The translations under genes and the position numbers were made by a program. From Candidatus Aminicenantes bacterium (GTDB taxonomy: Bacteria > Acidobacteriota > Aminicenantia > Aminicenantales > Saccharicenantaceae), in contig JAXDAV010000074.1 in the NCBI GenBank assembly GCA_034679465.1, positions 19,949-83,948 on the forward strand: a DNA stretch of 64,000 bases, read 5' to 3'. Of this stretch, positions 16,654 to 64,000 are shown piece by piece (position 1 is the stretch's first letter; every line of letters begins with the position of its first letter). The notes beneath the pieces are model-generated. The model made no database searches and was not told the DNA's origin. It saw only the letters and a list, made by a program, of their open reading frames with translations.

Positions 16654-16698
16654 GGCAGGGCCGATTCACTACAAAAACACTCAGAATTGGAGATCCCG

Positions 16699-17025: not shown

Positions 17026-17046
17026 ACGAATCGGGGACACGTACCC

Positions 17047-17115
17047 AAAAGAAGGGACCGGGTCTTCGCAAGGCTGAACAGGCTCACTCCTTGCGAAGAC
17101 CCGGTCCCTTCTTTT
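17047..17115. terminator. bidirectional rho-independent terminator with a 27 bp perfect stem
   Basis: Positions 17047-17073 are the exact reverse complement of 17089-17115, with a 15 nt loop, an A-run on the 5' side and a T-run on the 3' side. It lies between convergent trxA and the YihY-like gene. Confidence 0.8.
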
Positions 17116-17138
17116 TCTGCGCCCCTTTTCTGGGCCCG

Positions 17139-18041: not shown

Positions 18042-18077
18042 CCGTTCCGGGTCCCGGCCGGGCTTCGGCCCGGAGGC

Positions 18078-18431
18078 CTAGACGTACTTCCCCCACTGGA
18101 CCATCAGGATGATGATGGTGATGAGCAGGGCGTAGATGACCAGCGTCTCGATGAGGACGAGCCCCAGGATGAGCAGGCCGCGGATGGCCGGCGCGCCGGA
18201 CGGGTTGCGGGAGATCCCCTCGCAGGCCGAGCAGATGGCCCGCGACTGGCAGATGGCGCCGGCGATGACCGCCAGGCTGATCACGGCGCCGCCGACGATG
18301 AGCGACAGCTTGAACAGGTCGGCCCGGGGCTTGGCCAGCTCGGCCGGGGACGCGTCCTGGGCCAGCGCGGGCAGGGCCATCAGGGCGATCCCGAAGGCCA
18401 TCAGGCACAGGGCTTTGAGTCTCTTGGACAT
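18078..18431 (-). CDS. atpE: ATP synthase Fo subunit c with an N-terminal signal-peptide-like extension
   Basis: C-terminal hairpin ..ACEGISRNPSGAPAIRGLLILGLVLIETLVIYALL, with the loop RNP and the carboxylate E in helix 2. Start set at ATG 18431 (MSKRLKAL), with AAGGAG 7 nt upstream, rather than the track GTG 18449. Confidence 0.85.
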   Translation of the reverse strand: MSKRLKALCLMAFGIALMALPALAQDASPAELAKPRADLFKLSLIVGGAVISLAVIAGAICQSRAICSACEGISRNPSGAPAIRGLLILGLVLIETLVIYALLITIIILMVQWGKYV

Positions 18432-41509: not shown

Positions 41510-41821
41510 ATGACCGCTCAAAAACACAAGGGACTGGCGCTCGGGCTGGCCGTCGCGATCATCGCGCTCGCGCTCGCTCCGGCCTTGGCCCAGTCGACGG
41601 CGTCGAAGGCGAAGGTCAACATCAACACCGCCCCGGCCTCGGAGCTCGAAACGCTGCCGCGGATCGGCCCCAAGGTGGCCCAGAGGATCATCGATTTCCG
41701 GACCAAGAACGGCAACTTCAAGCGGGTCGAGGAGATCATGAAGATCCAGGGGATCGGCGAGAAGGTCTATGAGCAGATCAAGGACCTGATCACGGTGGGC
41801 GCCGAAACCGCGCCGAAATGA
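41510..41821 (+). CDS. ComEA-like helix-hairpin-helix DNA-binding protein
   Basis: 103 aa with a signal/anchor peptide, then VNINTAPASELETLPRIGPKVAQRIIDFR...IQGIGEKVYEQIK (tandem HhH). Confidence 0.8.
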   Translation: MTAQKHKGLALGLAVAIIALALAPALAQSTASKAKVNINTAPASELETLPRIGPKVAQRIIDFRTKNGNFKRVEEIMKIQGIGEKVYEQIKDLITVGAETAPK

Positions 41822-41871
41822 CGGCCCGGCCCTGTCCGGCCGGCCTCCCCAGCGGGGCCCCCGGACGGGGC

Positions 41872-42478
41872 CTATCTTTTCGCCTCGAGGAAGCGGCGAA
41901 GCCTGCGGACGGCCCGGCCGCGGTGGCTGACCTCGTTCTTGACCCGGGCCGGGAGCTCGGCGAACGTCCGCCGAAGCGGCGGATAGAAAAAGACCGGATC
42001 GTAGCCGAATCCCGACCGCCCCCGCGGCGCGAGGGCGATGCGGCCCCGGACTTCGCCCCGGAACTCCCCGACGATCGAGCCCCCCTCGGCCAGGACCATG
42101 ACGCAGACGAAGCGGGCCTTCCGGGCCGGCGCGGGAACGCCTTCGAGGAGGCGCAGGAGTCTGTCGATGTTCTTTTCGTCGGAGGGGCGCGGGGCGGAAA
42201 AGCGGGCCGAGCGGACGCCGGGCGCGCCGCCCAGGGCTTCGACCTCGAGCCCCGAGTCCTCGGCCAGGGTCAGCCCGGGCCGGCGACGGCTGTAGAAGAG
42301 GGCCTTGGACCGGGCGTTGGCTTCGAACGTCCGGCCCCGCTCGACGGGCTTCGGGCCGGGCCGGGCGCCGGCGAGGCCGACGACCTCGAGGGGCCGGCCG
42401 CCGCGCGAAAGGCCCTTCAGGGCCCTCCGGAGCTCGCGGACCTTGCCAGGGTTCCCGGTCGCCAGGAGGAGGCGCCCC

Positions 42479-42486
<8 letters not shown>
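41872..42486 (-). CDS. rdgB: dITP/XTP pyrophosphatase (RdgB/HAM1 family)
   Basis: 204 aa, with ATGNPGKVRE, SGLEVEALGGAPGV and GFGYDPVF motifs. Confidence 0.9.
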
Positions 42487-44512
<2,026 letters not shown>

Positions 44513-44637: not shown

Positions 44638-45081
44638 ATGAGGCTCTCGACGAAGGGCGAATACGCCAGCCGGGCCATGCTGGAGCTGTCCCGCAGATAT
44701 GGGGACGGCCCGATCCACAGCCGGGAGATCTCCGACGCCCAGGTGATCCCCCAGAACTTCCTCGAGCAGATCCTCCTTCTCCTGAAGCGGGCCGGCTACC
44801 TCAAGAGCCGTAAGGGCCCGAAGGGCGGCTATGTCCTGGCCAAGCCTCCGGGCGAGATCACTGTGGCCGAGGTCATCCGGGTCATGGACGGCCCCCTCGC
44901 CCCCATCGATTGCGTCAGCGTCATGGCCCGCGAGACCTGCCCGATGGAGGGGACCTGCGGCCTGCGCTGGCTGTGGAAGGACGTCCGCGACGCGGTGGCC
45001 GACATCCTCGAAAGGACGACCTTCGCCGATCTCGTCAGCAGGAGCAGTCCCGCCGCGGGCGAAGAGGGGAGACGGCCGTGA
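44638..45081 (+). CDS. Rrf2-family transcriptional regulator with a three-Cys putative Fe-S ligand set
   Basis: 147 aa. N-terminal wHTH MRLSTKGEYASRAMLELS...ISDAQVIPQNFLEQILLLLKRAGYLKSRKGPKGGY, and a Cys cluster CVSVMARETCPMEGTC (C-x8-C-x5-C). Confidence 0.85.
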   Translation: MRLSTKGEYASRAMLELSRRYGDGPIHSREISDAQVIPQNFLEQILLLLKRAGYLKSRKGPKGGYVLAKPPGEITVAEVIRVMDGPLAPIDCVSVMARETCPMEGTCGLRWLWKDVRDAVADILERTTFADLVSRSSPAAGEEGRRP

Positions 45082-48754: not shown

Positions 48755-49246
48755 ATGAAATATGACGAATATGATAAGGGGATTCTTAAAATTCTGTATG
48801 AAGACGGCAAGATCTCCAACTCCACCCTGGCTCAGAAGATCAAGCTCTCTCCGCCGGCGACCCTCGAACGGGTCCGCAAGCTCCGGACAAACGGCATCAT
48901 CCAGGGACAGAAGGCAATCCTCGACAAGAAGAAGCTCGGCCGGGGCCTGACCTGCTTTCTTGCCCTGCAGATCAAGCACCTCCATTGCCAGGAGGACTAC
49001 CAGCGCATCGAGGAGCACCTCAAGCAGCTCGAGGAGATCGAGGAGATCCATTTCCTCACCGGTCGGATCGACTACCTCATCAAGGTCAACGTCCGGGACA
49101 TCGACGAGTACCGGGAGTTCTTCGTGGCCAGGCTCTCGAAGGTCCCGCTGATCGAGCGGGCCGAGACCTTCGTCGTGGTGTCCTCGGGCGTCAATCCGCG
49201 ATACAACCCGATCAACGTCGACCCGAAGGACCAGGATCCCGAATGA
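48755..49246 (+). CDS. Lrp/AsnC-family transcriptional regulator
   Basis: 163 aa with an N-terminal HTH (ILKILYEDGKISNSTLAQKIKLSPPATLERVRKLRTNGII) and a C-terminal RAM/AsnC effector domain (IHFLTGRIDYLIKVNVRD). Confidence 0.88.
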   Translation: MKYDEYDKGILKILYEDGKISNSTLAQKIKLSPPATLERVRKLRTNGIIQGQKAILDKKKLGRGLTCFLALQIKHLHCQEDYQRIEEHLKQLEEIEEIHFLTGRIDYLIKVNVRDIDEYREFFVARLSKVPLIERAETFVVVSSGVNPRYNPINVDPKDQDPE

Positions 49247-52736: not shown

Positions 52737-54884
52737 ATGGCCAAGACGAACGAGGCCCGGCATTTCCCTGGGGGAGCGACCCTTGCGCTGGGCCTTTTCG
52801 CCGCGGTCCTGGCCGGCTGTCGGGGCGGCGGGCCGTTCCGGGCCGGGACCGCGTCGGGGCACAGCGTCCTCCTGATCACGCTCGACACGACGCGGGCCGA
52901 CCGTCTCGGCTGTTACGGCTATGGGCCGGCCGCGACCCCCCACCTCGACCGCCTGGCCCGCGAGGGCGTCCGCTTCGAGCGGGTCTATTGCCCGGCCCCG
53001 CTGACCCTGCCTTCGCACAGCTCCATCCTGACGGGCCTTCATCCGGCGACGCACGGCGTCCGCAACAACGGCCACGACCTCTCGCCGAAATGGAGGACGC
53101 TGGCCGAGATCCTGAAGGCCGGGGGATTCGCCACGGCGGCCTTCGTCTCGGCCTTCTCGGTCGATTCCCGGTTCGGCCTCGACCGGGGCTTCGACGTCTA
53201 CGACGACGCGTTCCAGCCCCCGGCGCCCCTGACGGGGGCGCACGCCGAGCGGCGGGCCGAGGAGACGTTCGCCCGATTCGCCCGCTGGCTCGACGGCCAC
53301 GGCGGGAATCGGTTCTTCGCCTGGGTCCATTACTACGACCCCCACCTGCCCTACGACCCGCCTTCGCCGTATCGTGAAGCCGCGCCCGGGCGCCCCTACG
53401 ACGGCGAGATCGCCTATATGGACCATTATGTCGGCCGGATCGTGGACGCGCTCGCGGCCAAGGGCCTCCTCGACCGGACCCTCATCGTCGTCGCCGGCGA
53501 CCACGGCGAGGGGCTGGGGGACAAGGTCGAGACCGGCCACGGCATCTTCCTCTACGAAGAGACGCTCCGCGTGCCTCTCATCATCCGCAGTCCCGGGTCC
53601 TTCCCCCGGCCGCTCGTCGTCGAGGGGCCGGTGCGGCTGGTGGACGTGGCCCCGACCATCCTGGAGACGCTCGGCCTCGCGGCGGAGGCCGGGGGCATGG
53701 AAGGCCGGAGCCTCGTCCCCTGGGTCAGGGACCCGGCCCGGCCCGGGCTCGACAGCCTGGTCGAGACCTTCTATCCCCGTGAGAACTTCGGCTGGTCGGA
53801 GCTCGTCGGGATCGTCTCCGGCCCCTGGAAATACATCCAGGCGCCCAGGCCCGAGCTCTACGACCTCGCGACCGACCCGGGGGAGAGGACGGACCTGGCG
53901 GCCTCGTCGCCGACCCAGGCGGACGAGCTCCGGAAGAGGCTCGAGGCCGAGCTCCTGAGGCTGGCCGCTCCGGCCGGCGCGTCCGGCGGGCAGGCCGTCC
54001 GGGCCGACGACCGGGAAAGACTCCGGTCCCTGGGCTACGTCAGCTTCGCTCCGGCCCGGCCGGGCGCGGCCGCCCCGGACCCGAAGGACCGGATCGGCCT
54101 GCTCAAGCTCGTCCAGCAGGCCCAGGCGTTCGAGCTCGAGGAGAAGTTCGCCGAAGCCGAGCGGGTCTATCTCCAGATCGTGGCGGAGATCCCGGATTCG
54201 CCGGAGAGCTACGTCAATCTGGCCATCGCCCAGGCGAGACAGAACAGGTTCGACCGGGCCGTGGAGACCCTCGGCCGGGGCCTGGCCCGGATGCCGGACT
54301 CCGAGACCCTGCTTGTCCGTCTCGGCCACACCTACCTCGTCAGCGGCAAGCCGGGCGAGGCCTTGGAGACGATGGTGAAGGTCCTCGGCTACAACCCCCG
54401 GAGCGTCGACGCCCTGACGGTCGCCGCGGGCATCCTCGACGCCTCGGGCCGGAAGGCCGAGGCCCGGGCGCTCTTCGAACGGGCCCTCGAGATCGAACCG
54501 GAAGGCCTCCACCTGCGGACGAGCTACGCGGCCAACCTGGCCTCTTCCGGCGCCCTCAAGGAAGCGATCGCCGTCTATCGGACGCTGATCGAAGATTTCC
54601 CCGAGGAACAGGCCTACTATCAATTCGCCGGCATCGCCCACTCGTTCCTCGGCGAATTCGATCAGGCGGTCGAGCTCCTGCGCCAGGCCCTGGCCATCCG
54701 GCCGACGCCGGTCGGCTTCTTCAATCTGGCCGTGGCCTACGAAAAGAGGGGCGACCTCAAGGAAGCGGCCGAGGCCCTGCGGATGTATCTCCGCAACTCT
54801 CGGGGTGAGAGCGAGGACAATATCCGCAAGGCCCGGGCCGAGCTCGAGACCCTGGAAAAGAAGATCGGCCGGGGCCCGTCCTGA
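52737..54884 (+). CDS. sulfatase-like (alkaline-phosphatase superfamily) lipoprotein with C-terminal TPR repeats
   Basis: 715 aa with the lipobox LAGC and an N-terminal metal site LITLDTTRADRLG. The nucleophile region APLTLPSHSSILTG has Thr in place of the Cys/Ser-x-P-x-R formylglycine motif. TPR repeats run from about residue 450 to the end. Confidence 0.75.
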   Translation: MAKTNEARHFPGGATLALGLFAAVLAGCRGGGPFRAGTASGHSVLLITLDTTRADRLGCYGYGPAATPHLDRLAREGVRFERVYCPAPLTLPSHSSILTGLHPATHGVRNNGHDLSPKWRTLAEILKAGGFATAAFVSAFSVDSRFGLDRGFDVYDDAFQPPAPLTGAHAERRAEETFARFARWLDGHGGNRFFAWVHYYDPHLPYDPPSPYREAAPGRPYDGEIAYMDHYVGRIVDALAAKGLLDRTLIVVAGDHGEGLGDKVETGHGIFLYEETLRVPLIIRSPGSFPRPLVVEGPVRLVDVAPTILETLGLAAEAGGMEGRSLVPWVRDPARPGLDSLVETFYPRENFGWSELVGIVSGPWKYIQAPRPELYDLATDPGERTDLAASSPTQADELRKRLEAELLRLAAPAGASGGQAVRADDRERLRSLGYVSFAPARPGAAAPDPKDRIGLLKLVQQAQAFELEEKFAEAERVYLQIVAEIPDSPESYVNLAIAQARQNRFDRAVETLGRGLARMPDSETLLVRLGHTYLVSGKPGEALETMVKVLGYNPRSVDALTVAAGILDASGRKAEARALFERALEIEPEGLHLRTSYAANLASSGALKEAIAVYRTLIEDFPEEQAYYQFAGIAHSFLGEFDQAVELLRQALAIRPTPVGFFNLAVAYEKRGDLKEAAEALRMYLRNSRGESEDNIRKARAELETLEKKIGRGPS

Positions 54885-54890
54885 CGGACG

Positions 54891-55424
54891 TCAGGACGCG
54901 CCGATCCGTTTCAAGCCCGCGCGCAGGGCCTCCCCCAGGGCGATGATGTCGGCGTAGTCCGCCGCTCCGCCGTCGCCGCGCCCGCGACGCAACAGGCTGA
55001 AACGCAAGCGGTTGCGCGTGTGCCGGTAGCCGAACTCGATCCCCGGATGGCCGAAGAAGAGGGTCATCATCGTCTCGGTCATCTTGGTCAGGGGCGGCCG
55101 GTCGACGTGGGAGAGCCCGAACCGGGCCGTGACCCGCGTCCCCGCTCCCGGATCGGAGGAGAGGGTCAGCCGGCCGCCGCAGAGGCCGGCGGTCTGGGCC
55201 AGGAGCGGGAGCCCGAGGCCCGTCCGCTTCCGCCCGGTCGTGTAGAACGGATCGAGGGCCCGCGCCCGCTCCTCCGCGGCCATGCCCCGGCCGTTGTCGG
55301 TCACCCGGATCGTCAGCGCGTCCCGGAGATCGCTCTCGTTGACGGCGATGAGCACGCGGGTCGCGCCGGCGGCCGCGGCGTTCTCGGCGAGATCGAGGAT
55401 GTGGAGCGAGAGGTCCTCGATCAT
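54891..55424 (-). CDS. GHKL/HATPase_c ATP-binding protein without a DHp/phospho-His domain
   Basis: 177 aa with an N box HILDLAENAAAAGA, G1 DNGRGM and G2 GLGLPL, starting directly at the ATPase fold. ATGA overlap with the upstream PHP gene. Confidence 0.75.
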   Translation of the reverse strand: MIEDLSLHILDLAENAAAAGATRVLIAVNESDLRDALTIRVTDNGRGMAAEERARALDPFYTTGRKRTGLGLPLLAQTAGLCGGRLTLSSDPGAGTRVTARFGLSHVDRPPLTKMTETMMTLFFGHPGIEFGYRHTRNRLRFSLLRRGRGDGGAADYADIIALGEALRAGLKRIGAS

Positions 55425-56167
55425 GGCCCGACGATCCTCCGGCCCTCCCGGCCCGCCAGGGCCAGGCGGATCTCCCCGAGGCCCGTTCCTTCGACCAGGA
55501 AGTCTGTCGCGGCCGCGCCGATCTCCTCCGGCGTGTGGGCGTCCGAAAAGCGGACGATCGGCAGGGGGGCCAGCGATCCGAAAGCGGCCCGGGCCTGCTC
55601 CGCCGTCAGCCGGGGGGAGACCTCGATGGCCTCCAGCGCCAGCCCCGGGGGGATGAAACCGAGCTGAGAGACGATGCTGAACGAGTCCCGGTCGACGTGG
55701 CCGGCGATGGCCAGGCCGCCGTGGCCGCGGATGAGATCGACCGCCTCCCGGACCGGGAAGAGGGTCGCCCCGAGGAGACAGCGCGGGCAGAAGCCGGTCA
55801 CGTCATCGGCGGCGTCGACGAGGACCTGGTCGGCGACGAACTTCATCTTCGCGGCGAGGTCGGGGAGGTTCCGATAGACCTCCTCCTGGAACGGGCCGAG
55901 GTCGACCCCGGCGTCGAAGAGGCCGAGGATGTGGACCTCTTCGGCCGTCGTCATCTCGATGCCCGGGAGGACGGCCAGGCCCGTCCCGGCCGCGGCCTCG
56001 ATCACGGCGCCGGCGTTCTCCGTCGTGTTGTGGTCGGTGACGGCGATGAGGTCGAGCCCGGCCGCGCGGGCCCGGTCGACGACCGCGCGGGGCGACATCG
56101 TCAGCTCGCCGCAGGGCGAGAGGCAGGTATGGATGTGGAGGTCGGCCCGGACCCGCCGGAGGGCCAT
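55421..56167 (-). CDS. PHP-domain (polymerase/histidinol-phosphatase type) metal-dependent phosphoesterase
   Basis: 248 aa, with ADLHIHTCLSPCG, IAVTDHNT, the GIEMTT motifs and C-terminal SDAH. Confidence 0.8.
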   Translation of the reverse strand: MALRRVRADLHIHTCLSPCGELTMSPRAVVDRARAAGLDLIAVTDHNTTENAGAVIEAAAGTGLAVLPGIEMTTAEEVHILGLFDAGVDLGPFQEEVYRNLPDLAAKMKFVADQVLVDAADDVTGFCPRCLLGATLFPVREAVDLIRGHGGLAIAGHVDRDSFSIVSQLGFIPPGLALEAIEVSPRLTAEQARAAFGSLAPLPIVRFSDAHTPEEIGAAATDFLVEGTGLGEIRLALAGREGRRIVGP

Positions 56168-56508
56168 CAGCTCCCCTTGACGCCCAGCGCATGGAGACGG
56201 CCGGCCAGCTCGAAGGCGCCCAGGCGGGCCCCCAGCAGCGGGATCTTTTCCCGTTCGGCCTGGGCCAAGGTTTCCGCCGTGGGCGCCCGGCCGCCGACGA
56301 GGACGACGCCGGCCAGCTCCTTGAGGACGGCCACGGCGACGATGTTCGGATGGACCTGCATGGTCACCCAGACGTCGTCCTTGCGGGCGTGCCCGATGAC
56401 GTCGGAGAGGAGGTCGCTCGCGTAGCCGCCTCCGACGGGCCGGTCGAGCTGGACGCCGGGGGTGAAGACCGTGAGATCGAGACGCGTTGCCAGATCGCTG
56501 AGGGTCAT
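56167..56508 (-). CDS. DRTGG-domain protein (113 aa)
   Basis: This is the C-terminal part of track ORF 56167..57759, starting at ATG 56508 (MTLSDLATRLDL...GGGYASDLLSDVIGHARKDDVWVTMQVHPNIVAVAVLKELAGVVLV). It matches the small DRTGG proteins found in hydrogenase-regulatory clusters. ATGA overlap with the upstream gene. Confidence 0.7.
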   Translation of the reverse strand: MTLSDLATRLDLTVFTPGVQLDRPVGGGYASDLLSDVIGHARKDDVWVTMQVHPNIVAVAVLKELAGVVLVGGRAPTAETLAQAEREKIPLLGARLGAFELAGRLHALGVKGS

Positions 56509-57803
56509 CGCTTCTCCTTCCGGCCCTTCTTCGCCCGGCCCTTGGGGACGAACGGGCAGTCCTCGAGCCGGGCGTAGCCGCGGACGATGTCGTCGGCCAG
56601 GGTCCGGCAATCGGGGGCCCCGCAGACGCCGCAGTCCTTGAGCGGCAGGCCGGCGAAGATCCTCTCCCGCCGCTTGGCTTTGCGGATGGCCTTGGCCGGG
56701 TCCCGGTCCAGGGGGCGCGGTTCCGCGGGCGTCACCGGGTGGTCGAACGAGAGGAAATTCTTGTGATAGAGGCGGCTGACGTCCTTCTGGTCGATGACCG
56801 CGTGCTCGCCCGCGGCGGCGACGAGCTCGAGGACGCGGCTCTTGGCCAGGAAGCGGTTCTCGACCCCGAGCGGCCCGCCCACGCACCCGTCGGGACAGAC
56901 CGTGCACTCGAGGAGATCGATGTCCTGGAGCAGTCCGCCCTCGACCTCGTCGAGGACGCGCATGGTGTCCCGGATGCCCGAGACGGCCACGGCCCGATGG
57001 GTCTTGAGGCCGCGCGTCTCCCCGCCGGAGAGGGGCCAGCCCATGCCCAGGCCGCTGAAGAGCGTCTCCGGGAAGAGGTGGCGCATCAGGGCGTCCTCCT
57101 CGCTCTTGCGCAGGGCCTTGAGGATCTGGGGGAAGATGTCCCGGATCGACATGGCCCCGTCGAGGTAGGACCTGGCCAGGGTGGCCGGGCTGTTGATGGA
57201 GACGATCTTGGCCGGGCAGGGCGTGATGTGAATGATGCCGATCCGCTCGGCCGGGATCCCCAGAGCCTTGGGCAGGATGGTCCGGAGGATCTTGGCGGCG
57301 ATCTCCCGCGGCGGCTCGATCGGCATGATCTGGCCGCAGAGGGAGGGGTAGCGCCGCTGGATGATCCGGACGACGACGGGGCAGGTCGAGGTGATGTAGG
57401 GCCGGGGCCCGGGGTGCTCGTCGAGATACTTCTCGGTCGCGGCGCAGTTGAGCTCGCAGATCGAGCTGAGATCGTAGACCTCGTCGAACCCGACCCGGCG
57501 CAGGGCCGACAGGATCTCGGTGGGCAGGACGGTGGGGCCGAACTGGCCGTAGATGACCGTCGAGGGGATGGCGACCTTGTAGTCGAAGGCCTCCAGCGCG
57601 GCGAACGACGTGGTATGGGAGTGGACGGCCTCGTGGGGGCAGACGCGGAGACACTCGGCGCAGTCGATGCAGAGCTGGTCGATGATGCGGGCCTTGCCCC
57701 CCTCGACCCGGATGGCCCGGGTCGGGCAGGCCGACATGCAGCGGACACAGCCGACGCACTTGTCCTCGGTGATGTGGATGGCGTGGAAGTTCCTGTCGCT
57801 CAT
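56505..57803 (-). CDS. [FeFe]-hydrogenase-like Fe-S protein, putative sensory type (2x ferredoxin 4Fe-4S + variant H-domain + C-terminal Cx2Cx4Cx16C)
   Basis: 432 aa. It has C16x2Cx2Cx3CP and C45x2Cx2Cx3CP. The H-cluster motif equivalents are ITSTCP (res 137-142), TPCPAK (194-199) and ECTVCPDGCVGGP (299-311). The C-terminus has C391GVC394GAPDC399...C416. Confidence 0.8.
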   Translation of the reverse strand: MSDRNFHAIHITEDKCVGCVRCMSACPTRAIRVEGGKARIIDQLCIDCAECLRVCPHEAVHSHTTSFAALEAFDYKVAIPSTVIYGQFGPTVLPTEILSALRRVGFDEVYDLSSICELNCAATEKYLDEHPGPRPYITSTCPVVVRIIQRRYPSLCGQIMPIEPPREIAAKILRTILPKALGIPAERIGIIHITPCPAKIVSINSPATLARSYLDGAMSIRDIFPQILKALRKSEEDALMRHLFPETLFSGLGMGWPLSGGETRGLKTHRAVAVSGIRDTMRVLDEVEGGLLQDIDLLECTVCPDGCVGGPLGVENRFLAKSRVLELVAAAGEHAVIDQKDVSRLYHKNFLSFDHPVTPAEPRPLDRDPAKAIRKAKRRERIFAGLPLKDCGVCGAPDCRTLADDIVRGYARLEDCPFVPKGRAKKGRKEKR

Positions 57804-58255
57804 GGCCTCACGTGTCCGTTCTTCCTGATGACGATGTCGAGGCGCGTCCCCCGGCCCACTTCCGAGTCGATGGCGAAGTCGTCGGCGTTCCTGCGGATGT
57901 TCGGCAGTCCCATGCCGGCGCCGAAGCCGAGCTCCCGCATCTCGGCCGTCGCCGTCGAGTACCCCTCGGTCAGGGCCAGCTCGACGTCCGGGATGCCCGG
58001 GCCGCGGTCGTCGATGGTGAGCCGGACCTCGCCGGGGGACACGGTCAGGTCCATCCGGGCGTCCCAGGCGTACATGATGACGTTCATCTCGGCCTCATAG
58101 GCGACGATGGCCGCCCGCCGCACCGTCGCCGTGTCGATCCCCAGGTCCTTCAGCAGCTCCTTGATGTCGCAGGCGGCGGCGCCGGCCCGGGCGAAGTCCC
58201 CGCCCTTGACGGGGTACTCCCGGCGGAAGACGGACTCAGCGGCGGGCATGGCCAC
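57800..58255 (-). CDS. RsbW-like anti-sigma-factor-type Ser/Thr kinase fold ATPase (HATPase_c_2)
   Basis: 151 aa. AIVAYEAEMNVIMY, DDRGPGIPD and GFGAGMGLPNI motifs resemble the N, G1 and G2 boxes. ATGA overlap with the hydrogenase-like gene. Confidence 0.7.
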   Translation of the reverse strand: MAMPAAESVFRREYPVKGGDFARAGAAACDIKELLKDLGIDTATVRRAAIVAYEAEMNVIMYAWDARMDLTVSPGEVRLTIDDRGPGIPDVELALTEGYSTATAEMRELGFGAGMGLPNIRRNADDFAIDSEVGRGTRLDIVIRKNGHVRP

Positions 58256-58592
58256 CGTCCTCGACCCGCCCGGCGATCCGCGAGCAGGCCGTGAACATCG
58301 TCATCCTGGTCGCGATCAGCGGGAGGCCCTTCGCCCGGGCCTCGGCGATGGCCTCCGCGGCCGGGCGCTTGCCCTGGACGAAGACGACCGCGGCGATGTC
58401 GGCGACGGCGCAGGCGCAGACGACGTGGGGATTGGCCAGCCCGGTCAGGAGGAGCGAGCCCGGCTCGGCGGAGGTGAGGACGTCGCTCATGAGATCGGAA
58501 GCGAAGACCTTGTGGAAGGCGGTCTCGGGGGCGGTCGCCGGGGTCAGGAGCTCGGCGTCGAGAAGGGCCAGAACGTCCTTGAGAGCGATCAT
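58236..58592 (-). CDS. DRTGG-domain protein (118 aa), paralogue of 56167..56508
   Basis: This is the C-terminal part of track ORF 58236..60197, starting at ATG 58592 after GGGAGG (MIALKDVLALLDAELL...FASDLMSDVLTSAEPGSLLLTGLANPHVVCACAVADIAAVVFV). Confidence 0.7.
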   Translation of the reverse strand: MIALKDVLALLDAELLTPATAPETAFHKVFASDLMSDVLTSAEPGSLLLTGLANPHVVCACAVADIAAVVFVQGKRPAAEAIAEARAKGLPLIATRMTMFTACSRIAGRVEDGGHARR

Positions 58593-58649
58593 GGGACCTC
58601 CCGCCGCGCCGGAATCCCGCCCGGCTTCATTATAACCCGAAGCCCGGGC

Positions 58650-58680
58650 AAAAAAAAGGGGACGAGCCCGGCCCGTCCCC
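58650..58680 (-). terminator. rho-independent terminator after the GltB-like gene
   Basis: On the minus strand, GGGGACG pairs with CGTCCCC (58658-58664 / 58674-58680 in plus coordinates), with a 9 nt loop, followed by T8 (58650-58657). Confidence 0.75.
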
Positions 58681-58696
58681 TGGATACGGCCCGCGA

Positions 58697-60283
58697 TCAC
58701 TTGGCCTTGAGGATCTCCTGGACCTCGGCCTTGTCGACGTCGGTGATGAACGGGATGGCGCTGATGTCGGCGGCCGGCTTGGTGATGGCCGCGATGTCGT
58801 CCCGGCTGATGTAGCCCAGGTTGAACTTGCGCGCGCCGGCCATCAGCTGCCGCAGGCCCTGGCTCAGCCGCTCGAAGTAGGTGTAGACGCCCATCGCCCC
58901 GGGCGGCAGGTCCTTGAACCGCTCGCCGAAGCGGTGCTTGAGCTCGGGGGCGGTGACGAAGATCTCGTCCTTGGTGCTGCCGAAGCGCTCGACATAGACC
59001 GGGATCTGGCCGTCGGAGATGCGGCCGCCGATGGTCTTCCCGACCATGGCCGCGGCCATGGGCGAGCGGGCCATGCCGACGAGCTTGACGTAGGGCGCGC
59101 CGAGGGCCAGGGCCTTGAAGATCTGGTCCTCGAAGGTGATGCCGCCGGCGAAGGCCAGATCGGGGACGTACTCGCCCTGCTGGGCCAGCTGGTCGGCGTA
59201 CTGATAGGTCAGCGACCAGATCTCGACGGCCGGGACGCCCCACTCGTTCATCATCCGCCAGGGGCTCATGCCCGTGCCGCCGCCGGCGCCGTCGACGGTC
59301 AGCAGGTCGAGCTTGGCCTTGGAGGCGAACTTGACCGCCCGGGCCAGGTCGGCCGGCCGATAGGCGCCGGTCTTGAGGAAGACGCGCTTGGCCCCGGCCT
59401 GGCGCAGCTCCTCGACCCTCTGCATGAACTCGCCCTCGTCGACCATGCCCATGCGGGAGTGGCGCTCGAACTCCTTGAAACTGCCCTTCTCGAAGGCCTC
59501 GATGACCTTGGGGTTGTCGGGGTCGGGCAGGACGATGTAGCCCTTCTTCTTCAGGGCCTGGGCCTTCTTGACGGTCTTGAGCTTGACCTCGCCGCCGATG
59601 TCCTTGGCCCCCTGGCCCCATTTGAGCTCGACCGTCTCGACGCCCAGCTTCTGGACGGCGTATTCCTGGACGCCGAGGCGGGTGTCCTCGACGTTGGCCT
59701 GGACGACGACGTCGCCGTAGCCGTCCCCCTGCCAGTCGCGGAACGACCGGACGCGGAACTCCATGTCCGGGGAGCGGACGACCTTGCCGTTCTTGAGCTC
59801 GGTCTCGTCGTCCATGCCGCAGACGTTTTCGCCGATCGTCAGGATGACCCCGGAGACGGCCGCCCCGCCGCCGAGGCCGGCCCAGTTCTGCTTGGCGATG
59901 TTGGTCGAGCCCATGCCCGAGATGACGAAGGGCAGTCTGAGCTTGAGGTCCTTGTCGCGGCCGATCCTGGTCTCGGTCGTGACCTTCTCGAACGTGGCCT
60001 TGTCGCTGTCGGCGGGGACGCCGTAGGCCCCCTTGGCCGTCCCCATGATGCTGAAGTGGGACAGGTCGATGGGGTAGTCCTTCTCGCAGGCCGCCGTGAT
60101 GATGCCGAACGGCTGCGGATAGAGGACCTCGTGGCCGCGGTAGGCGGACTTCCCGATCTCGCACATCCCGACGCAGCCGTCGACGCAGGTCACGCACATC
60201 CCGCTGAAGGGGCTGATCGATCCCTCCGTCCGGTTCTTGGTCAGGGTGGCGGCGCTTCTGTTGAGCTTGGTCATGGTCGGCAT
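58697..60283 (-). CDS. glutamate synthase-related FMN-binding protein (GltB domain-2 type) with an N-terminal Cys cluster
   Basis: 528 aa. N-terminal CVTCVDGCVGMC, a TIM-barrel region with DGAGGGTGMSP (equivalent to the GltS FMN-domain GGTGA motif), and LAFAGGI. No amidotransferase domain. Confidence 0.8.
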   Translation of the reverse strand: MPTMTKLNRSAATLTKNRTEGSISPFSGMCVTCVDGCVGMCEIGKSAYRGHEVLYPQPFGIITAACEKDYPIDLSHFSIMGTAKGAYGVPADSDKATFEKVTTETRIGRDKDLKLRLPFVISGMGSTNIAKQNWAGLGGGAAVSGVILTIGENVCGMDDETELKNGKVVRSPDMEFRVRSFRDWQGDGYGDVVVQANVEDTRLGVQEYAVQKLGVETVELKWGQGAKDIGGEVKLKTVKKAQALKKKGYIVLPDPDNPKVIEAFEKGSFKEFERHSRMGMVDEGEFMQRVEELRQAGAKRVFLKTGAYRPADLARAVKFASKAKLDLLTVDGAGGGTGMSPWRMMNEWGVPAVEIWSLTYQYADQLAQQGEYVPDLAFAGGITFEDQIFKALALGAPYVKLVGMARSPMAAAMVGKTIGGRISDGQIPVYVERFGSTKDEIFVTAPELKHRFGERFKDLPPGAMGVYTYFERLSQGLRQLMAGARKFNLGYISRDDIAAITKPAADISAIPFITDVDKAEVQEILKAK

Positions 60284-60311
60284 GATGTTACCTCCTCGAT
60301 GTCCTTCGTCG

Positions 60312-60995
60312 TTAAGATTTTTTGTCCCGGACGCAGGTGCCGCAGCGGCCCGCGTCGTACATCCAGCACTGGAGGTCGTCGTAGTGCTCCAGGCAGGTCG
60401 GTTCCATGGTCAGGCAGGCGTTGCACAGGGCCGTCTCGGCGTTCGGCCCCTGGCAGCGGAGCTGGCAGGCGGGGCAGATGTACATGCAGGCGCCGCACAG
60501 CCGGCAGACCTCCGAGCGCAGGTCGAACGGCGTCGAGATCGTCCGCTTGTGGCCCCTCTGCTGGAAGCCGATGGCCCGGGCGTCCATCTGCTCGGCGCAG
60601 ATCCGCGTGCACAGGCCGCAAAGGACGCACTCGTCGTTCCGGGGGGCGAACCGGACCTTGGTCACGCCGAAGCGGGAGGCCAGGTCCTGGAGGACCTTGG
60701 AGCCCGGCGCGGTGGAGAGCATGAGCTCGATCATCATCCGCCGCGCCGACCAGACCCGGTCGGAATCGGTCCGGACGACGAGCCCCGCTTCGGCCGGGTA
60801 GGTGCAGGACGTCACCAGCTTCGACCGCGGCCGCTCGCCGATCTCGACGAGACAGAGCCGGCAGCCGCCGAACTCCGTCAGGCCTTCGTGATGACAGAGG
60901 GTCGGGATCTCCAGGCCGTAGAACTTGGCCGTCTCGAGGACGGTCCAGCCCTCCTCGGCCTTGACGCACAAGCCGTTCAGGATGAGTTCGATCAT
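60312..60995 (-). CDS. 2Fe-2S plus 4Fe-4S ferredoxin-type protein resembling the N-terminus of NuoG/HydA/HylA, without a catalytic domain
   Basis: 227 aa. MIELILNG..TVLETA...PTLCHHEGLTEFGGCRLCLVEI (2Fe-2S fold), CVLCGLCTRIC and CRLCGACMYICP (4Fe-4S), plus extra C-terminal cysteines. 4 nt overlap with the upstream gene. Confidence 0.75.
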   Translation of the reverse strand: MIELILNGLCVKAEEGWTVLETAKFYGLEIPTLCHHEGLTEFGGCRLCLVEIGERPRSKLVTSCTYPAEAGLVVRTDSDRVWSARRMMIELMLSTAPGSKVLQDLASRFGVTKVRFAPRNDECVLCGLCTRICAEQMDARAIGFQQRGHKRTISTPFDLRSEVCRLCGACMYICPACQLRCQGPNAETALCNACLTMEPTCLEHYDDLQCWMYDAGRCGTCVRDKKS

Positions 60996-63900
60996 GTTTC
61001 ACGTCCCAGCGCATTCTTGGCGTCCCGGGTCTCGAGCTCACAGCGGAGGCAGCGCCGGGCCTCCTTCAGGGCGAGCTCCCCGGTGAAGCCGAGCTCGATC
61101 TCGTCGTGTCCCGACCGCCTCTTGCCGCGGGGCAGGTGGGGCATCCTGGCCCTCTTCGTGTTTTGGGCCTCCTCCTCGGTCAGCTTGACCGGCTCCACGT
61201 AGCAGGCCGGGCGCGTGACCTCGTTGACCCGGACGAAGGGGCGTCCCTCGAGGTAGGCCTCGATCGACCGGGCCGCGGCCTTGCCCGCGGCCATGGCCTC
61301 GACGACGCTGCTCGGGCCCGAGACGACGTCGCCGCCGGCGAAGACGCCCGGCCGGGTCGTGGCCATGCTGGCCGGGTCGACGATGATCGTGCCCCACTCG
61401 GGCGACAGCGTCAGGCCGTCGCTCTCCCTGAGGTAGGGCGTGTAGGCCCGCTCGCTGATGGCCAGGATGAGGGTATCGGCCGGCACCTGGAACTCCGACC
61501 CCGGGATGGGCACGGGCCGGGCCCGGCCGCTCGAGTCCTTCTCGCCGAGCTTCATGCGGATGCACTCGACGCCGACGACCCGGCCGTCCCGGGTGCGGAT
61601 GCGGACCGGGGCGGTCAGGTATTCGATCCGGATCCCCTCCTCGAGCCCGGCCTCGATCTCTTCGGGGTAGGCCGGCATCTCCCGCCGTGTCCGGCGGTAG
61701 AGGATCGTGGCCTCCTTCACCCGCTTGTCGCGGAAGGCGACGCGGGCGGCGTCGACGGCCGAGTTGCCGCCGCCGATGACCGCGACCCGGGCGCCGAGCG
61801 AGACCGGGATCCCGAGATGATGGTCTTTGAGGTATTCGAGGGCCTGGAGGACGCCTTCGGCCTCTTCGCCGGGGACGCCCATCTCGAGCGGCTTGTGGGC
61901 GCCCGTGGCCAGGTAGACGGCCTTGTAGCCCTGCCGGAAGAGATCGTCCAGGCTGAAGTCCTTGCCGAGCGTCATGTTGGTCTTGATGCTCAGGCCGCAG
62001 CTGACGAGGTAGTCGAGGTCGTCCTGGAGCCTCTCCTTGGGCAGGCGGTGGTCGGGGATGGTCACCCGGAGCATGCCCCCGGCGACCGGCAGGGACTCGA
62101 GGATCCGGACGGCGAAGCCCTTCTTGATGAGCTCGTAGCCCGCCGCCAGGCCGGACGGCCCGGCGCCGACGATGGCCACCTTCTCGGGCCGGGTGACGGG
62201 GAGCCTTTCGGGCGCGTCGAGGCCCTTCTCCCGGGCCCAATCCAGGACATAGCGCTTCAGGGCCCGGATGGCGATGGGCTCGCCGATCTCCCCGGCCCGG
62301 CAGACGGATTCGCAGGGCCGGCTGCAGACCCGGCCGCAGACCGAAGGGAGCGGGTTGTCCTTGCGGATGACCCGGAAGGCCTCCGCGTGCTTCTTCTGGG
62401 CGACGAGGCCGATGTAGCTCGAGGCCTCCTGGTCGATGGGGCAGGCGTACTGACAGGGCGCGGAGACGATCTCCTTGCAGACCATGGCCGGGCACCGTCT
62501 CTCGACGACGTGCTTCTCGTACTCGGGCCGGAAGTAGCGCAGAGTGGACAGGACCGGGTTGGCGGCCGTCTGGCCGAGCCCGCAGAGGGAGGCGTCCTTG
62601 ACCGCCGCCGCCAGCTCTTCGAGCAGGGCGATGTCCTCCAGGGTCCCCTGGCCGTCCGTGATCCTGCTGACGATCTCGTACATGCGCTGGGTGCCCTCGC
62701 GGCAGGAGACGCACTTGCCGCAGGACTCGTCGCGCAGGAAATTCAGGAAGTACTTGGCCAAGTCGACCATGCAGGTCTTGTCGTCCATGACGATCATGCC
62801 GCCGGAGCCCATCATGGCCCCCGCGGCCGTCAGGCTCTCGTAGTCGACCGGCAGGTCGAGGAGCTTGGCCGGGATGCAGCCGCCCGACGGGCCGCCGATC
62901 TGGACGCCCTTGATGGCCCGGCCGCCGGGGACGCCGCCGCCGATGCCGTCGACGATCTCCCGGAGGCTGATGCCCATCGGGACCTCGACCAGGCCGGTGT
63001 TGGCGATCTTGCCGACGAGCGAGAAGATCTTCGTCCCCTTGCTCGTGTCCGTGCCCAGGCCCGCGAACCACTTCGCCCCCCGGCGGATGATGTTGGGAAC
63101 GGTCGCCCAGGTCTCGACGTTGTTGTTGACCGTCGGCGAGCCCCAGAGCCCCTTGCTGGCCGGGAAGGGCGGGCGCTGCCGGGGCATGGCGATCTGGCCC
63201 TCGATCGAGGCGATCAGGGCCGTTTCCTCGCCCGAGACGAACGCGCCGGCCCCCTGGACGATCTCCAGGTCGAAATCGAAGCCCGTGCCCAGGATGTCGG
63301 TCCCGAGCAGTCCGTACTCCCGGGCCTGCCGGATGGCGATGTCGATGCGCTTGATGGCCAGGGGATACTCGTGGCGGATGTAGATGAACCCCTTCGCGGC
63401 GCCGATCGCCTTGGCCCCGATGATCATGCCCTCCAGGACCGCGTGGGGATCGGCCTCGAGGACGGAGCGGTCCATGAACGCGCCGGGGTCGCCCTCGTCG
63501 CCGTTGCAGATGATGTACTTCGGCGAGCGCTTCTGGACGGCGCAGGCGGCCCATTTCTTGCCCGTGGGGAAGCCGGCCCCGCCGCGGCCCCGCAGGCCGG
63601 AGGCGGCGATCTCTTCCAGGATGGCCTCGGGCGTCATCTCGGTCAGGGCCTTGGCCAGGGCCTCGTAGCCGTCGAAGGCGATGTACTCGTCGATCTTCTC
63701 CGGGTCGATCCGGCCGCGGTTGCGCAGGACGATGAGGCGCTGGTGCTTGAAGAACTCGATGTCCTTCATCTTCGGGACCGGCTTGTCCTCGGCCGGGGGG
63801 ACGTACATCAACTTCTTGACCGGCCGGCCCTTGAGGAGATGCTCCTCGACGAGACGGGGGATGTCCTCGGTCTTGAGAAGCTGATAGAAGATCCCGTCCG

Positions 63901-64000
63901 GCTGGACCATGACGATGGGGCCCCGCTCGCAGAACCCGTTACAGCCCGTGGCGATGACCTGGACCTCGTCCTGGAGGCGCCGCCTGGCGATCTCCTGCTC
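60992..64000 (-). CDS. fusion flavoprotein: thioredoxin-like 2Fe-2S + NuoF/HydB-like (FMN, NADH, 4Fe-4S) + GltD/NfnB-like (2x 4Fe-4S, FAD, NAD(P)H); the N-terminus lies beyond the right window edge
   Basis: The frame stays open upstream of the track M at 63910 to position 64000 (..VIATGCNGFCERGPIVMVQPDG, a Trx-like 2Fe-2S motif). NuoF motifs are GRGGAGFPTGKKW and ESCGKCVSCREG..LCGLGQ. GltD motifs are PLPSVCGRVCSRPCESVC, VAIVGAGPSGLAAGYEL and VAVIGGGNSAVDAAR. Confidence 0.85.
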   Translation of the reverse strand, partial: EQEIARRRLQDEVQVIATGCNGFCERGPIVMVQPDGIFYQLLKTEDIPRLVEEHLLKGRPVKKLMYVPPAEDKPVPKMKDIEFFKHQRLIVLRNRGRIDPEKIDEYIAFDGYEALAKALTEMTPEAILEEIAASGLRGRGGAGFPTGKKWAACAVQKRSPKYIICNGDEGDPGAFMDRSVLEADPHAVLEGMIIGAKAIGAAKGFIYIRHEYPLAIKRIDIAIRQAREYGLLGTDILGTGFDFDLEIVQGAGAFVSGEETALIASIEGQIAMPRQRPPFPASKGLWGSPTVNNNVETWATVPNIIRRGAKWFAGLGTDTSKGTKIFSLVGKIANTGLVEVPMGISLREIVDGIGGGVPGGRAIKGVQIGGPSGGCIPAKLLDLPVDYESLTAAGAMMGSGGMIVMDDKTCMVDLAKYFLNFLRDESCGKCVSCREGTQRMYEIVSRITDGQGTLEDIALLEELAAAVKDASLCGLGQTAANPVLSTLRYFRPEYEKHVVERRCPAMVCKEIVSAPCQYACPIDQEASSYIGLVAQKKHAEAFRVIRKDNPLPSVCGRVCSRPCESVCRAGEIGEPIAIRALKRYVLDWAREKGLDAPERLPVTRPEKVAIVGAGPSGLAAGYELIKKGFAVRILESLPVAGGMLRVTIPDHRLPKERLQDDLDYLVSCGLSIKTNMTLGKDFSLDDLFRQGYKAVYLATGAHKPLEMGVPGEEAEGVLQALEYLKDHHLGIPVSLGARVAVIGGGNSAVDAARVAFRDKRVKEATILYRRTRREMPAYPEEIEAGLEEGIRIEYLTAPVRIRTRDGRVVGVECIRMKLGEKDSSGRARPVPIPGSEFQVPADTLILAISERAYTPYLRESDGLTLSPEWGTIIVDPASMATTRPGVFAGGDVVSGPSSVVEAMAAGKAAARSIEAYLEGRPFVRVNEVTRPACYVEPVKLTEEEAQNTKRARMPHLPRGKRRSGHDEIELGFTGELALKEARRCLRCELETRDAKNALGRET

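Follow-up and report, generated by a model that had tools for sequence, protein, structure and literature searches.

TamHydS of Thermoanaerobacter mathranii, a putative sensory [FeFe] hydrogenase of group D (also termed M2e), carries a bound H-cluster, has low activity and undergoes an H2-induced structural change, and its gene is located upstream of a bifurcating hydrogenase, beside a kinase-like ATPase (PMC8163306, PMC13104023). Group D/M2e was defined by two [4Fe-4S] clusters, the H-cluster cysteines and a C-terminal Cx2Cx4Cx16C motif, together with the lack of the proton-relay Cys, of the framing Met residues and of a PAS domain (Land et al., PMC8163306); papers based on HydDB label such PAS-less proteins C3 or C1. 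How a signal is passed on from PAS-less sensory [FeFe] hydrogenases has been an open question in the work on TamHydS (2020-2026). Here, a stretch of 64,000 nucleotides (nt) from a Candidatus Aminicenantes bacterium (GenBank assembly GCA_034679465.1, contig JAXDAV010000074.1, positions 19,949 to 83,948 of the forward strand; hereafter the window) was analyzed, in which a cassette of six overlapping minus-strand genes is built around a [FeFe]-hydrogenase-like protein, HydS. In order of transcription these genes encode a DRTGG protein (DRTGG1), a GHKL ATPase (HATP1), HydS, a second DRTGG protein (DRTGG2), a PHP phosphoesterase and a second GHKL ATPase (HATP2). The cassette itself is an ordinary, widespread group D sensory-hydrogenase cluster, and it is the partner enzyme in Aminicenantes that is unusual. 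We favour, with confidence about evenly balanced, the reading that the six-gene operon is an accessory sensor/switch module of bifurcating oxidoreductases of the NuoE/NuoF ("Bfu" or HydABC-like) type.

The assignment of HydS was based on its domains and on individual residues. Pfam gave matches to Fe_hyd_lg_C (91.8 bits), the FeS family PF04060 (42.7 bits) and Fer4 families at residues 9-64. In an alignment of 43 sequences, the cysteines of the N-terminal 2x[4Fe-4S] region (C16, C22, C26, C45, C48, C51 and C55) and all four H-cluster cysteines, C141 (TSTCP), C196 (TPCPAK) and C303/C307 (CPDGC), were invariant. The proton-relay cysteine (C299 of CpI) is gone (TSTCP vs TSCCP) and the framing methionines (M353 and M497) are replaced (TPC vs MPC; E-C-T-V-C vs E-x-M-x-C), and the group A catalytic motifs L1 TSC(C/S)P, L2 MPCxxK and L3 ExMxCxxGCxxG are not intact. 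The C-terminal Cx2Cx4Cx16C motif occupies residues 391-416 (CGVCGAPDCRTLADDIVRGYARLEDC, with C391, C394, C399 and C416), the protein stops 16 residues past the last cysteine, and no PAS match was found by Pfam. PDB sequence matches were [FeFe] hydrogenases only (E = 1e-21 to 1e-11), and the scores against the NCBIfam group A and B models were 78-97 bits, with cut-offs of 405-450. Because every structural feature of group D is present and there is no PAS domain, HydS is classified from its sequence as a group D/M2e putative sensory [FeFe]-hydrogenase homologue; an original prediction, made from the sequence alone, had placed it with the hfs-type (hfs/TmHydS) proteins of group C, and this does not hold.

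The HydS family comprises 333 clusters at 50% identity with E <= 1e-30, mostly of 415-460 amino acids (aa), and HydS is ~35-40% identical to its Firmicute members. In a crude neighbour-joining tree without support values, the Aminicenantes HydS falls among non-Firmicute sequences that neighbour NiFe-, molybdopterin- and GltD-type enzymes, and the large Firmicute/HydABC branch is separate from it. In the closest species-level relative (MFD00905.bin.2.87, locus L019; 91% HydS identity), the HydS and PHP genes are split or merged into frame-shifted open reading frames (ORFs) and NuoF is joined to Fer2_4, frame shifts that we would guess to reflect indels of the assembly and not biology. Among the fetched loci, only L086 (3499-5830), a metagenome-assembled genome (MAG) labelled only 'bacterium', has ORFs near its cassette that resemble HydF (420 aa, GTPase plus CxH...HCxxC) and HydE (radical SAM).

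When one genome per GTDB species was scanned with a set of 12 HydS sequences, the cassette was located at no fewer than 594 species-level loci, spread over 10 or more phyla. The best 80 of these loci were fetched with 10-kb flanks and annotated with iterated profiles built from the window proteins; 59 had room for a whole cassette, and 40 had at least 9 kb on both sides. Record titles include Aminicenantes, Ignavibacteria, Bacteroidetes, Thermodesulfobacteriota, Bryobacteraceae, Eisenbacteria, Planctomycetota, Fibrobacteraceae, Treponema, Armatimonadota and many Clostridia. Most of the 80 loci show an identical gene order, a recurrence well beyond chance, and the cassette is thus a conserved unit, as had been anticipated, rather than a set of genes scattered independently in relatives. 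Among the 59 loci with room for it, DRTGG1 was present in 56, HATP1 in 57, DRTGG2 in at least 47 (it is under-called in high-GC loci), PHP in 50 and HATP2 in 43.

Genes for both NuoE and NuoF were found within 10 kb of the cassette in 30 of the 40 well-flanked loci. The usual Clostridial order is DRTGG1 - ATPase - HydS - DRTGG2 - PHP - NuoE - ATPase2 - NuoE2 - NuoF - HydA, and in 30 loci the HATP2 gene is placed between those of NuoE and NuoE2, and in 10 it immediately follows that of PHP. The HydA of this layout (~580 aa) has canonical L2/L3 motifs and matches the bifurcating HydA1 of A. woodii and T. kivui (E = 1e-236 and 1e-194, respectively); catalytic HydA was called by L2/L3 motifs plus PDB matches, the 'CCP' signature being too strict (bifurcating HydA has TSCSPGW). 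At least 22 loci have [FeFe] HydA as the third module of the neighbouring enzyme. Four (L021, L022, L028 and L029; L numbers denote loci) have a HydA-like protein that lacks the H-cluster and precedes the small and large subunits of a [NiFe] enzyme, and two (L064 and L073) have an 850-aa Fer2_4-molybdopterin protein. NuoF-GltD fusions lie beside the cassette in L027, L038, L041 and L090, and a 227-aa HoxU-like protein together with a PF01645 protein serves as the third module only in Aminicenantes. These arrangements show the conserved partner of the cassette to be the NuoE/NuoF core and not any one hydrogenase. The likeness to clusters beside bifurcating [FeFe] hydrogenases that had been pointed out initially is borne out by them. 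No DNA-binding protein was conserved among the families upstream of the cassette across loci, the largest of which is a ~290-aa protein in eight Firmicute loci. In the two Planctomycetota MAGs with the molybdopterin protein (L064 1542-11300 and L073 2598-10105), DRTGG-ATPase-HydS lies by NuoE-NuoF, the formate-dehydrogenase/NuoG-like Fer2_4-molybdopterin protein and a separate GltD, with DRTGG2 displaced and PHP absent. A literature search on DRTGG, PHP and hydrogenase returned no paper.

Natural gene fusions were detected among several members of the cassette. HydS family representatives include DRTGG-HydS fusions (P0121 and P0206), a HATPase-HydS fusion (P0159) and HydS proteins with DRTGG at the C-terminus (P0133, P0139, P0145, P0195 and P0232), and DRTGG-HATPase fusions occur in L024, L028 and L050. 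Such fusions, and the overlap of start with stop codons, suggest that DRTGG1, HATP1, HydS and DRTGG2 are in direct contact or form one complex.

DRTGG1 consists of a single DRTGG domain with the conserved motifs D.MSDVL, LTGL.N, RTA and VRGK.P. DRTGG2 scores 21.5 bits in Pfam (cut-off 25.2) and is recovered by the family profile, its conserved motifs being Y..DLLS.V and W.T.....N..AVA.L; a D(L/M)(L/M)SDV motif with its Ser is conserved in both proteins across phyla. In HATP1 the N (YEAE.N), G1 (D.GPGI) and G2 (GFGAGMGLPN) boxes are intact and kept in 67 orthologues. Its HATPase_c_2 match is 31.1 bits, its only significant PDB sequence matches are to anti-sigma F factor (1th8/1til, E = 7e-6), and its sole NCBIfam match is spIIAB (TIGR01925) at 40.5 bits against a cut-off of 135; by these matches it is a stand-alone SpoIIAB/RsbW-like GHKL ATPase. 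HATP2 has conserved N, G1, F and G2 boxes and a C-terminal extension of ~70 aa, and its PDB matches are CA domains of histidine kinases (e.g., ZraS, 2e-8). It begins directly at the N box, as predicted, with HATPase_c aligned from the seventh residue, and no HisKA/DHp domain was found by Pfam. The ATP-binding boxes of both ATPases and the metal ligands of PHP are conserved across all phyla sampled, and the PHP metal-site motifs (DLHIH, TDHN, PGME, EE.H, PAH.DR and SDAH) are kept in 64 orthologues. The AlphaFold2 model of PHP (predicted local distance difference test, pLDDT, 86.5; predicted TM-score 0.87) gave as best Foldseek matches the EndoQ PHP domain (TMq 0.73), BAD_1165, TM0559, the pAp phosphatase 2yb1 and RNase AM, and no protein phosphatase of the CpsB/YwqE type appeared in the top 50 Foldseek matches or in the PDB sequence matches. 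Because its nearest folds and sequences include no protein phosphatase, pairing with a kinase to act on DRTGG is not the most natural reading of PHP, and the model makes a nucleotide or phosphodiester substrate at least as likely as a kinase/phosphatase pairing.

The six co-oriented ORFs fill the whole of 54891-58592 with very high third-position GC (Table 1), and the gene number, order, domains and 1-20 nt overlaps described in the original prediction agree with the coordinates, junctions and Pfam results, DRTGG2 through the family profile. Read on the reverse strand, ATGA junctions occur at 57800-57803, 56505-56508 and 55421-55424 and a TGATG junction between DRTGG2 and PHP at 56165-56169; the DRTGG1/HATP1 overlap is 14-20 nt, depending on whether HATP1 starts at ATG 58249 (149 aa, chosen by gene callers) or at GTG 58255. 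A terminator-like hairpin lies 16 nt past the stop codon of the preceding glutamate-synthase-like gene, between that operon and the cassette, and a similar hairpin/T-run is visible by eye at the equivalent site in L012 and L016. Since this hairpin and then a TATAAT element and a GGGAGG sequence precede DRTGG1, the six genes are best read, as far as such signals indicate, as one operon separate from the enzyme operon. In an alignment of seven upstream regions, the core ATAA and the next G were invariant, and the full TATAATG was found in six (the window, L012, L016, L005, L020 and L015), the more distant L007 being different. Its retention even in L015, where the cassette is unlinked from the enzyme genes, supports the operon, and the TATAAT element is likely the cassette promoter, judging by its position and conservation. 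A two-hexamer consensus scan found no complete sigma-70 site upstream of DRTGG1, and a search for riboswitches and other regulatory RNAs gave no Rfam match with E <= 0.1 within 54000-64000. At the other end, HATP2 and the sulfatase-TPR gene converge, with only 6 nt between their stop codons, and both of these codons are covered by a 14-nt inverted repeat (54873-54902; 93% complementary, 2-nt spacer), which may be a shared terminator without a T-tract; the unlinked cassette of L015 is still followed by the sulfatase-TPR gene. For HydS, PHP and the glutamate-synthase-like protein, the nearest homologues carry the names Candidatus Aminicenantes or Acidobacteriota. Identical contigs are present in the Logan assemblies SRR24057987-SRR24058006, and the Logan contigs that are 100% identical to window proteins (L001-L004 and L008-L011) are all short.

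Table 1. Features of the cassette and of the adjacent enzyme operon, in window coordinates.
Feature	Position	Strand	Description
HATP2	54891-55424	-	177 aa; HATPase_c 64 bits, residues 7-103
PHP phosphoesterase	55421-56167	-	248 aa; Pfam PHP
DRTGG2	56167-56508	-	113 aa; Pfam DRTGG just under threshold
HydS ([FeFe]-hydrogenase-like)	56505-57803	-	432 aa; Fer4 x2 + Fe_hyd_lg_C + PF04060 FeS
HATP1	57800-58255	-	151 aa if GTG 58255 is the start; HATPase_c + HATPase_c_2
DRTGG1	58236-58592	-	118 aa; PF07085 30.1 bits
GGGAGG Shine-Dalgarno sequence	~58598-58603	-	between TATAAT and DRTGG1
TATAAT (-10-like) element	58629-58634	-	~35 nt 5' of the DRTGG1 start codon
Intrinsic-terminator-like hairpin	58657-58681	-	11-bp stem, 8 G-C pairs, T7 tail
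FMN-binding glutamate-synthase-family protein	58697-60283	-	528 aa; PF01645 68.7 bits; N-terminal CxxCxxxCxxxC
HoxU/HydA-N-terminal-like Fe-S protein	60312-60995	-	227 aa; [2Fe-2S] + 2x[4Fe-4S]; Fer2_4, Fer4_7
NuoF (HydB/BfuB-like)-GltD fusion	60992-64000	-	Complex1_51K, NADH_4Fe-4S, Fer4_20, Pyr_redox_2; cut by window end

The initial description of the adjacent enzymes as glutamate-synthase/NuoF-like is confirmed by PF01645 and the NuoF-GltD fusion, and in both of the gene orders found a glutamate-synthase-like module stands in the place of HydA. The gene of the PF01645 protein, predicted to bind flavin mononucleotide (FMN), is the last of the operon and takes the position that the HydA H-domain has in other phyla. 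This protein is 80-93% conserved in Aminicenantes and has no PDB sequence match, no amidotransferase domain and no GXGXG domain; its model (pLDDT 56.6, from a shallow alignment of sequences with >=80% identity) has FMN TIM barrels as best folds (TM ~0.5), a low-confidence result that supports 'FMN barrel' only and no substrate. The best NCBIfam matches of the 227-aa protein are HoxU and the group A6 [FeFe]-hydrogenase model (its N-terminal 206 residues), and it resembles a truncated BfuA. The NuoF-GltD fusion, with an NAD(P)H-FAD GltD-type domain, is 1030 aa long in L016, L095, L103 and L126; compared with BfuB, it has the [2Fe-2S] motif (at the window edge), Complex1_51K and NADH_4Fe-4S, and the C-terminal ferredoxin domain is replaced by the Fer4_20 of GltD. 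Many relatives lack the GltD fusion and have a 605-aa NuoF in which the C-terminal ferredoxin domain is kept. NuoE and NuoE2 are encoded directly upstream of NuoF in all relatives, which for the window would place them past base 64000. A published Bfu survey lists no member of the GltB/glutamate-synthase type.

The link between cassette and enzyme is kept in two gene orders. In L007 (68% HydS identity, 4.3-Mb contig), the cassette directly precedes a co-oriented NuoE-NuoE2-NuoF-Fer2_4-PF01645 operon (13045-18248), and the 10-kb surroundings contain no hydrogenase; the other order is that of the window, found in L005, L012 (PF01645 operon at 4007-9020), L016, L095 and others. AsnC-type regulators were seen in both arrangements: in L007, one lies with a glutamine synthetase immediately upstream of the cassette (7066-9097), and the AsnC/Lrp regulator of the window (48755-49246) is 5.6 kb downstream of it and syntenic in L012-L014. 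A nitrogen/amino-acid link is possible, and the recurrence could be coincidence. In the genome GCA_041320535.1 (L175, 3926-14307), a class III aminotransferase and an amino-acid permease follow the PF01645 gene, and a 1105-aa ORF without a Pfam match lies on the opposite strand between the NuoF and HoxU-like genes.

The original prediction had stressed that there was no hydrogenase to regulate, which is an artefact of the window edge. The NuoF-GltD frame (60992-63910) stays open to base 64000, its extra 30 codons encoding a [2Fe-2S] thioredoxin-like motif, and the window therefore cuts the operon, whose upstream context is cut off rather than absent. Relatives that share the downstream flank (sulfatase-TPR, TonB-like receptor, AsnC and pst genes) carry NuoE2, NuoE, HypA, HypB, a small unannotated ORF, HoxH, HoxY and HoxU beyond that point, and a HoxH-anchored scan recovered HoxF-HoxU-HoxY-HoxH-HypB-HypA, then NuoE-NuoE2-NuoF-Fer2_4-PF01645 and the cassette, in L095, L100, L101, L103, L105, L108 and L126. 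In all of the at least 13 close relatives with enough sequence, Hox and HypB/HypA lie directly upstream of the NuoE...PF01645 operon. The Hox proteins (L095 6934-12915; L012 1-3771) are a NuoE-NuoF fusion HoxF of ~602 aa, HoxU (234 aa), HoxY (181 aa) and HoxH (482 aa). L095 is ~90% nt identical to window positions 56711-64000 and has the same NuoF-GltD fusion. By this synteny, a [NiFe] hydrogenase almost certainly follows just past the window end: HypA should start ~1.2 kb and HoxH should lie ~2.8-4.2 kb beyond it, with HypAB and Hox together at 1-6 kb. The cluster is, by its gene content, a [NiFe] enzyme with its own diaphorase and not an [FeFe] HydABC with HydEFG; the canonical hydABC operon with maturases whose presence just past the window had been considered is not what synteny places there; with [NiFe] Hox at that site, the claim of a missing hydrogenase is nevertheless not supported.

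Given the observed anatomy, operon signals, conserved order, fusions and gene neighbours, we infer a switch driven by ATP. HydS, which keeps the H-cluster ligands and lacks the proton relay, would turn over slowly and report H2 pressure or a low-potential redox state rather than metabolic flux; its sensing of H2 is proposed by analogy with the published work on TamHydS. HydS would be complexed with the two small DRTGG proteins and the SpoIIAB-like HATP1, and a change at the H-cluster or in the Fe-S chain would reach HATP1 by direct contact. HATP1 may then use ATP, by hydrolysis or transfer, to switch a partner, which would be one of the DRTGG proteins or a subunit of the adjacent enzyme, and the PHP phosphoesterase would reset the switch. 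HATP2 ('HisK'), whose gene accompanies those of the enzyme, is probably in contact with the NuoE/HydD part. With no DNA-binding protein conserved by the cassette, the output is probably post-translational. In the window the controlled enzyme would be NuoE-NuoE2-NuoF~GltD-HoxU-like-GltB-like, encoded between the cassette and the Hox [NiFe] hydrogenase, and since this enzyme sits beside Hox, H2 made or used by Hox is a plausible signal.

Several observations weigh against this sensor/switch proposal. In the study on Acetomicrobium mobile (PMC9304861), 'hisK' and 'hydD' did not co-purify with the enzyme. In ten of the 40 well-flanked loci, NuoE/NuoF genes are missing from the surrounding 10 kb, and in GCA_041320535.1 the cassette and the PF01645 operon are ~850 kb apart. 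A terminator splits the cassette from the enzyme operon, which leaves adjacency as the only link between them. The predicted fold of PHP, which resembles nucleotide or nucleic-acid phosphoesterases, would be a misfit in a simple kinase/phosphatase pair. The 2026 study of TamHydS found that H2 does not reduce the C-terminal cluster, and the signalling route within HydS was left open (PMC13104023). Furthermore, a HydS without HydEFG in the genome cannot carry the [2Fe] subcluster and could not sense H2; a motif search detected no HydE/F/G-like ORFs within +-10 kb of any Aminicenantes locus fetched, and literature searches on HydEFG returned nothing specific to Aminicenantes.

Other explanations share part of this evidence. 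The cassette might sense H2 in order to control the neighbouring Hox [NiFe] hydrogenase, the glutamate-synthase-like operon merely lying between them. Hox and HypB/HypA are constant companions of the enzyme operon in close relatives, Hox adjoins the cassette also in two unrelated lineages (L171 and L174), and an H2 sensor that steers a hydrogenase follows the established logic of regulatory [NiFe] hydrogenases. However, L007 keeps the cassette and the enzyme operon without Hox within 10 kb, the cassette is missing from most HoxH-anchored loci at 72-79% identity, the commonest neighbour across phyla is NuoE/NuoF and not a particular hydrogenase, and ~7 kb with at least two transcription units lie between Hox and the cassette, so that control of Hox appears unlikely. 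A hydrogenase-independent partner-switching or phospho-relay device, in which the ATPase phosphorylates DRTGG, PHP dephosphorylates it and an Fe-S redox gate controls a flavin enzyme, was the mechanism suggested at the outset. The placement of Hox [NiFe] and HypAB by synteny 1-6 kb past the window, the lack of protein phosphatases among the fold and sequence neighbours of PHP and the lack of a STAS or sigma partner in the window speak against it, and DRTGG is not known to act as a phospho-acceptor. It would fit the SpoIIAB-like nature of HATP1, the conserved Ser in the D(L/M)(L/M)SDV motif of both DRTGG proteins, the flavin enzyme as the immediate neighbour and the hydrogenase-free surroundings of the L007 cassette, and we consider it distinctly improbable.

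It has also to be considered that the cassette is not regulatory and serves the ATP-dependent assembly, maturation or repair of the NuoE/NuoF (BfuBC) core. In that case the GHKL ATPases would be chaperone-like clamps, HydS would donate electrons or serve as a scaffold for Fe-S clusters, and PHP would process a cofactor. Such a role would explain why the cassette accompanies Bfu-type enzymes with any third module (FeFe, NiFe, molybdopterin, GltD or GltB-like), why no DNA-binding output is conserved and why PHP is nucleotide-phosphoesterase-like; in addition, one ATPase is encoded within the enzyme operon and, in the A. mobile study, is absent from the purified holoenzyme. We nevertheless doubt this role: the closest relatives of HATP1 are anti-sigma serine kinases, i.e., regulators, and the H-cluster ligands of HydS are strongly conserved. 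HydABC enzymes have been produced and purified with no reported requirement for cassette genes. TamHydS, moreover, reacts with H2 (PMC8163306). Finally, HydS could be a catalytic subunit that docks on the HoxU-like protein and feeds electrons from H2 into an H2-dependent glutamate-synthase-like enzyme, given that the H-domain is gone from the enzyme operon but present in a protein encoded next door, which also has two [4Fe-4S] clusters and intact H-cluster ligands. This is very improbable, as a complete HydA accompanies the same cassette at most other loci, the relay Cys and the two Met residues are replaced, TamHydS activity is low (PMC8163306), and the cassette is a separate transcription unit that can be unlinked from the enzyme operon.

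A broader version of the sensor/switch proposal is that the module is a general ATP-driven H2/redox switch that works post-translationally on the NuoE/NuoF core, whatever the wiring of the latter, which in Aminicenantes gates an undescribed glutamate-synthase-like enzyme; this is a tentative idea, and we regard it as rather doubtful. If it were true, the H2 pressure set by Hox would decide between the formation of H2 and that of glutamate (or another reduced amino or keto acid), electrons of NAD(P)H and ferredoxin would be channelled into the glutamate-synthase-like FMN module, and the whole non-Firmicute branch of 'sensory hydrogenases' would consist of regulators of non-[FeFe] enzymes. For signal transfer from PAS-less sensory hydrogenases, the present analysis names candidate partners, namely the DRTGG pair and the SpoIIAB-like ATPase (from the HydS fusions), a PHP protein of the nucleotide-esterase branch, and the 'hisK' embedded in enzyme operons. 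Aminicenantes provide a natural test case, as a glutamate-synthase-family module has taken the place of the H2-forming domain in the enzyme beside the sensor; should the sensor be functional there, H2 sensing would steer nitrogen/carbon redox metabolism and not only hydrogenases.

With regard to the rest of the window, positions 1-54000 contain housekeeping genes, and Pfam analysis of ~45 further ORFs revealed no hydrogenase, HydEFG, Hyp protein, response regulator, sigma factor or STAS protein. Nothing pointed to a role in defence or in a mobile element, for which no dedicated search was made. The original statement that output and hydrogenase parts, including HydA, are missing from the window holds to this extent, but two DNA-binding regulators are present, the AsnC/Lrp protein mentioned above and an Rrf2 protein (44638-45081), neither of them beside the cassette. 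Three ORFs of coding-like composition have no Pfam match with E <= 1e-5: 847-2232 (minus strand, 461 aa), 30457-32475 (plus strand, 672 aa) and 41818-42531 (plus strand, 237 aa).

Among known systems, TamHydS has the same domain plan as HydS, without the relay Cys, the framing Met residues or a PAS domain, and both genes lie by a NuoE/NuoF-type enzyme; this likeness is drawn from the published description of TamHydS and from Firmicute members. The two differ in that the neighbour of HydS is a GltB-like variant together with [NiFe] Hox and not a group A3 HydABC, and no AraC-type regulator is near. In the NiFe-HydABCSL operon of A. mobile (Schut et al., PMC9304861), 'hisK' and 'hydD' correspond by position and family to HATP2 and NuoE2, respectively, although the equivalent of hisK is at the end of the cassette here and not between NuoE and NuoE2. 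Similarly, in Hydrogenedentota (PMC11406978), 'bfuT', a group C3 sensory hydrogenase gene, lies upstream of bfuC, the same arrangement as that of HydS upstream of the NuoE gene. Unlike both of these systems, the Aminicenantes enzyme has no [FeFe] or [NiFe] catalytic subunit of its own; DRTGG and PHP genes are not mentioned in the passages of the two papers that were consulted. The putative H2 sensors of group C, hfsABCD of Thermoanaerobacterium saccharolyticum and TmHydS/RaHydS (M2f), share with HydS the loss of the relay and the C-terminal four-Cys cluster, and their genes stand together with genes of the kinase or phosphatase type in the vicinity of fermentative hydrogenases; however, they have PAS domains and are accompanied by PP2C-type phosphatases or histidine kinases, whereas HydS has no PAS domain and its companions are DRTGG proteins, GHKL-only ATPases and PHP.

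Besides hydrogenases, HATP1 is, like the ATPases of the SpoIIAB-SpoIIAA and RsbW-RsbV pairs, a stand-alone GHKL ATPase of ~150 aa, but it scores far under the family cut-off, is fused or coupled to DRTGG and an Fe-S protein, and has no STAS, PP2C or sigma partner in the window; nor are STAS or sigma genes conserved upstream of the cassette across loci. On the enzyme side, the NuoF-GltD fusion and the Fe-S protein that is like the N-terminus of HydA match NfnABC and the Sporomusa-type Stn (Stn/Nfn-Bfu), and GltD and the PF01645 FMN protein represent the two redox parts of NADPH-glutamate synthase GltBD, from which the Aminicenantes enzyme differs in that the PF01645 protein is without the amidotransferase and GXGXG domains and the GltD fusion is missing in many relatives. 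The group 2b regulatory [NiFe] hydrogenase HoxBC-HoxJ belongs to unrelated protein families, and HoxJ has PAS and DHp parts that the cassette is without and signals to a response regulator; yet it follows the same logic, with a slow hydrogenase homologue as the H2 sensor and a kinase-type ATPase at its side.

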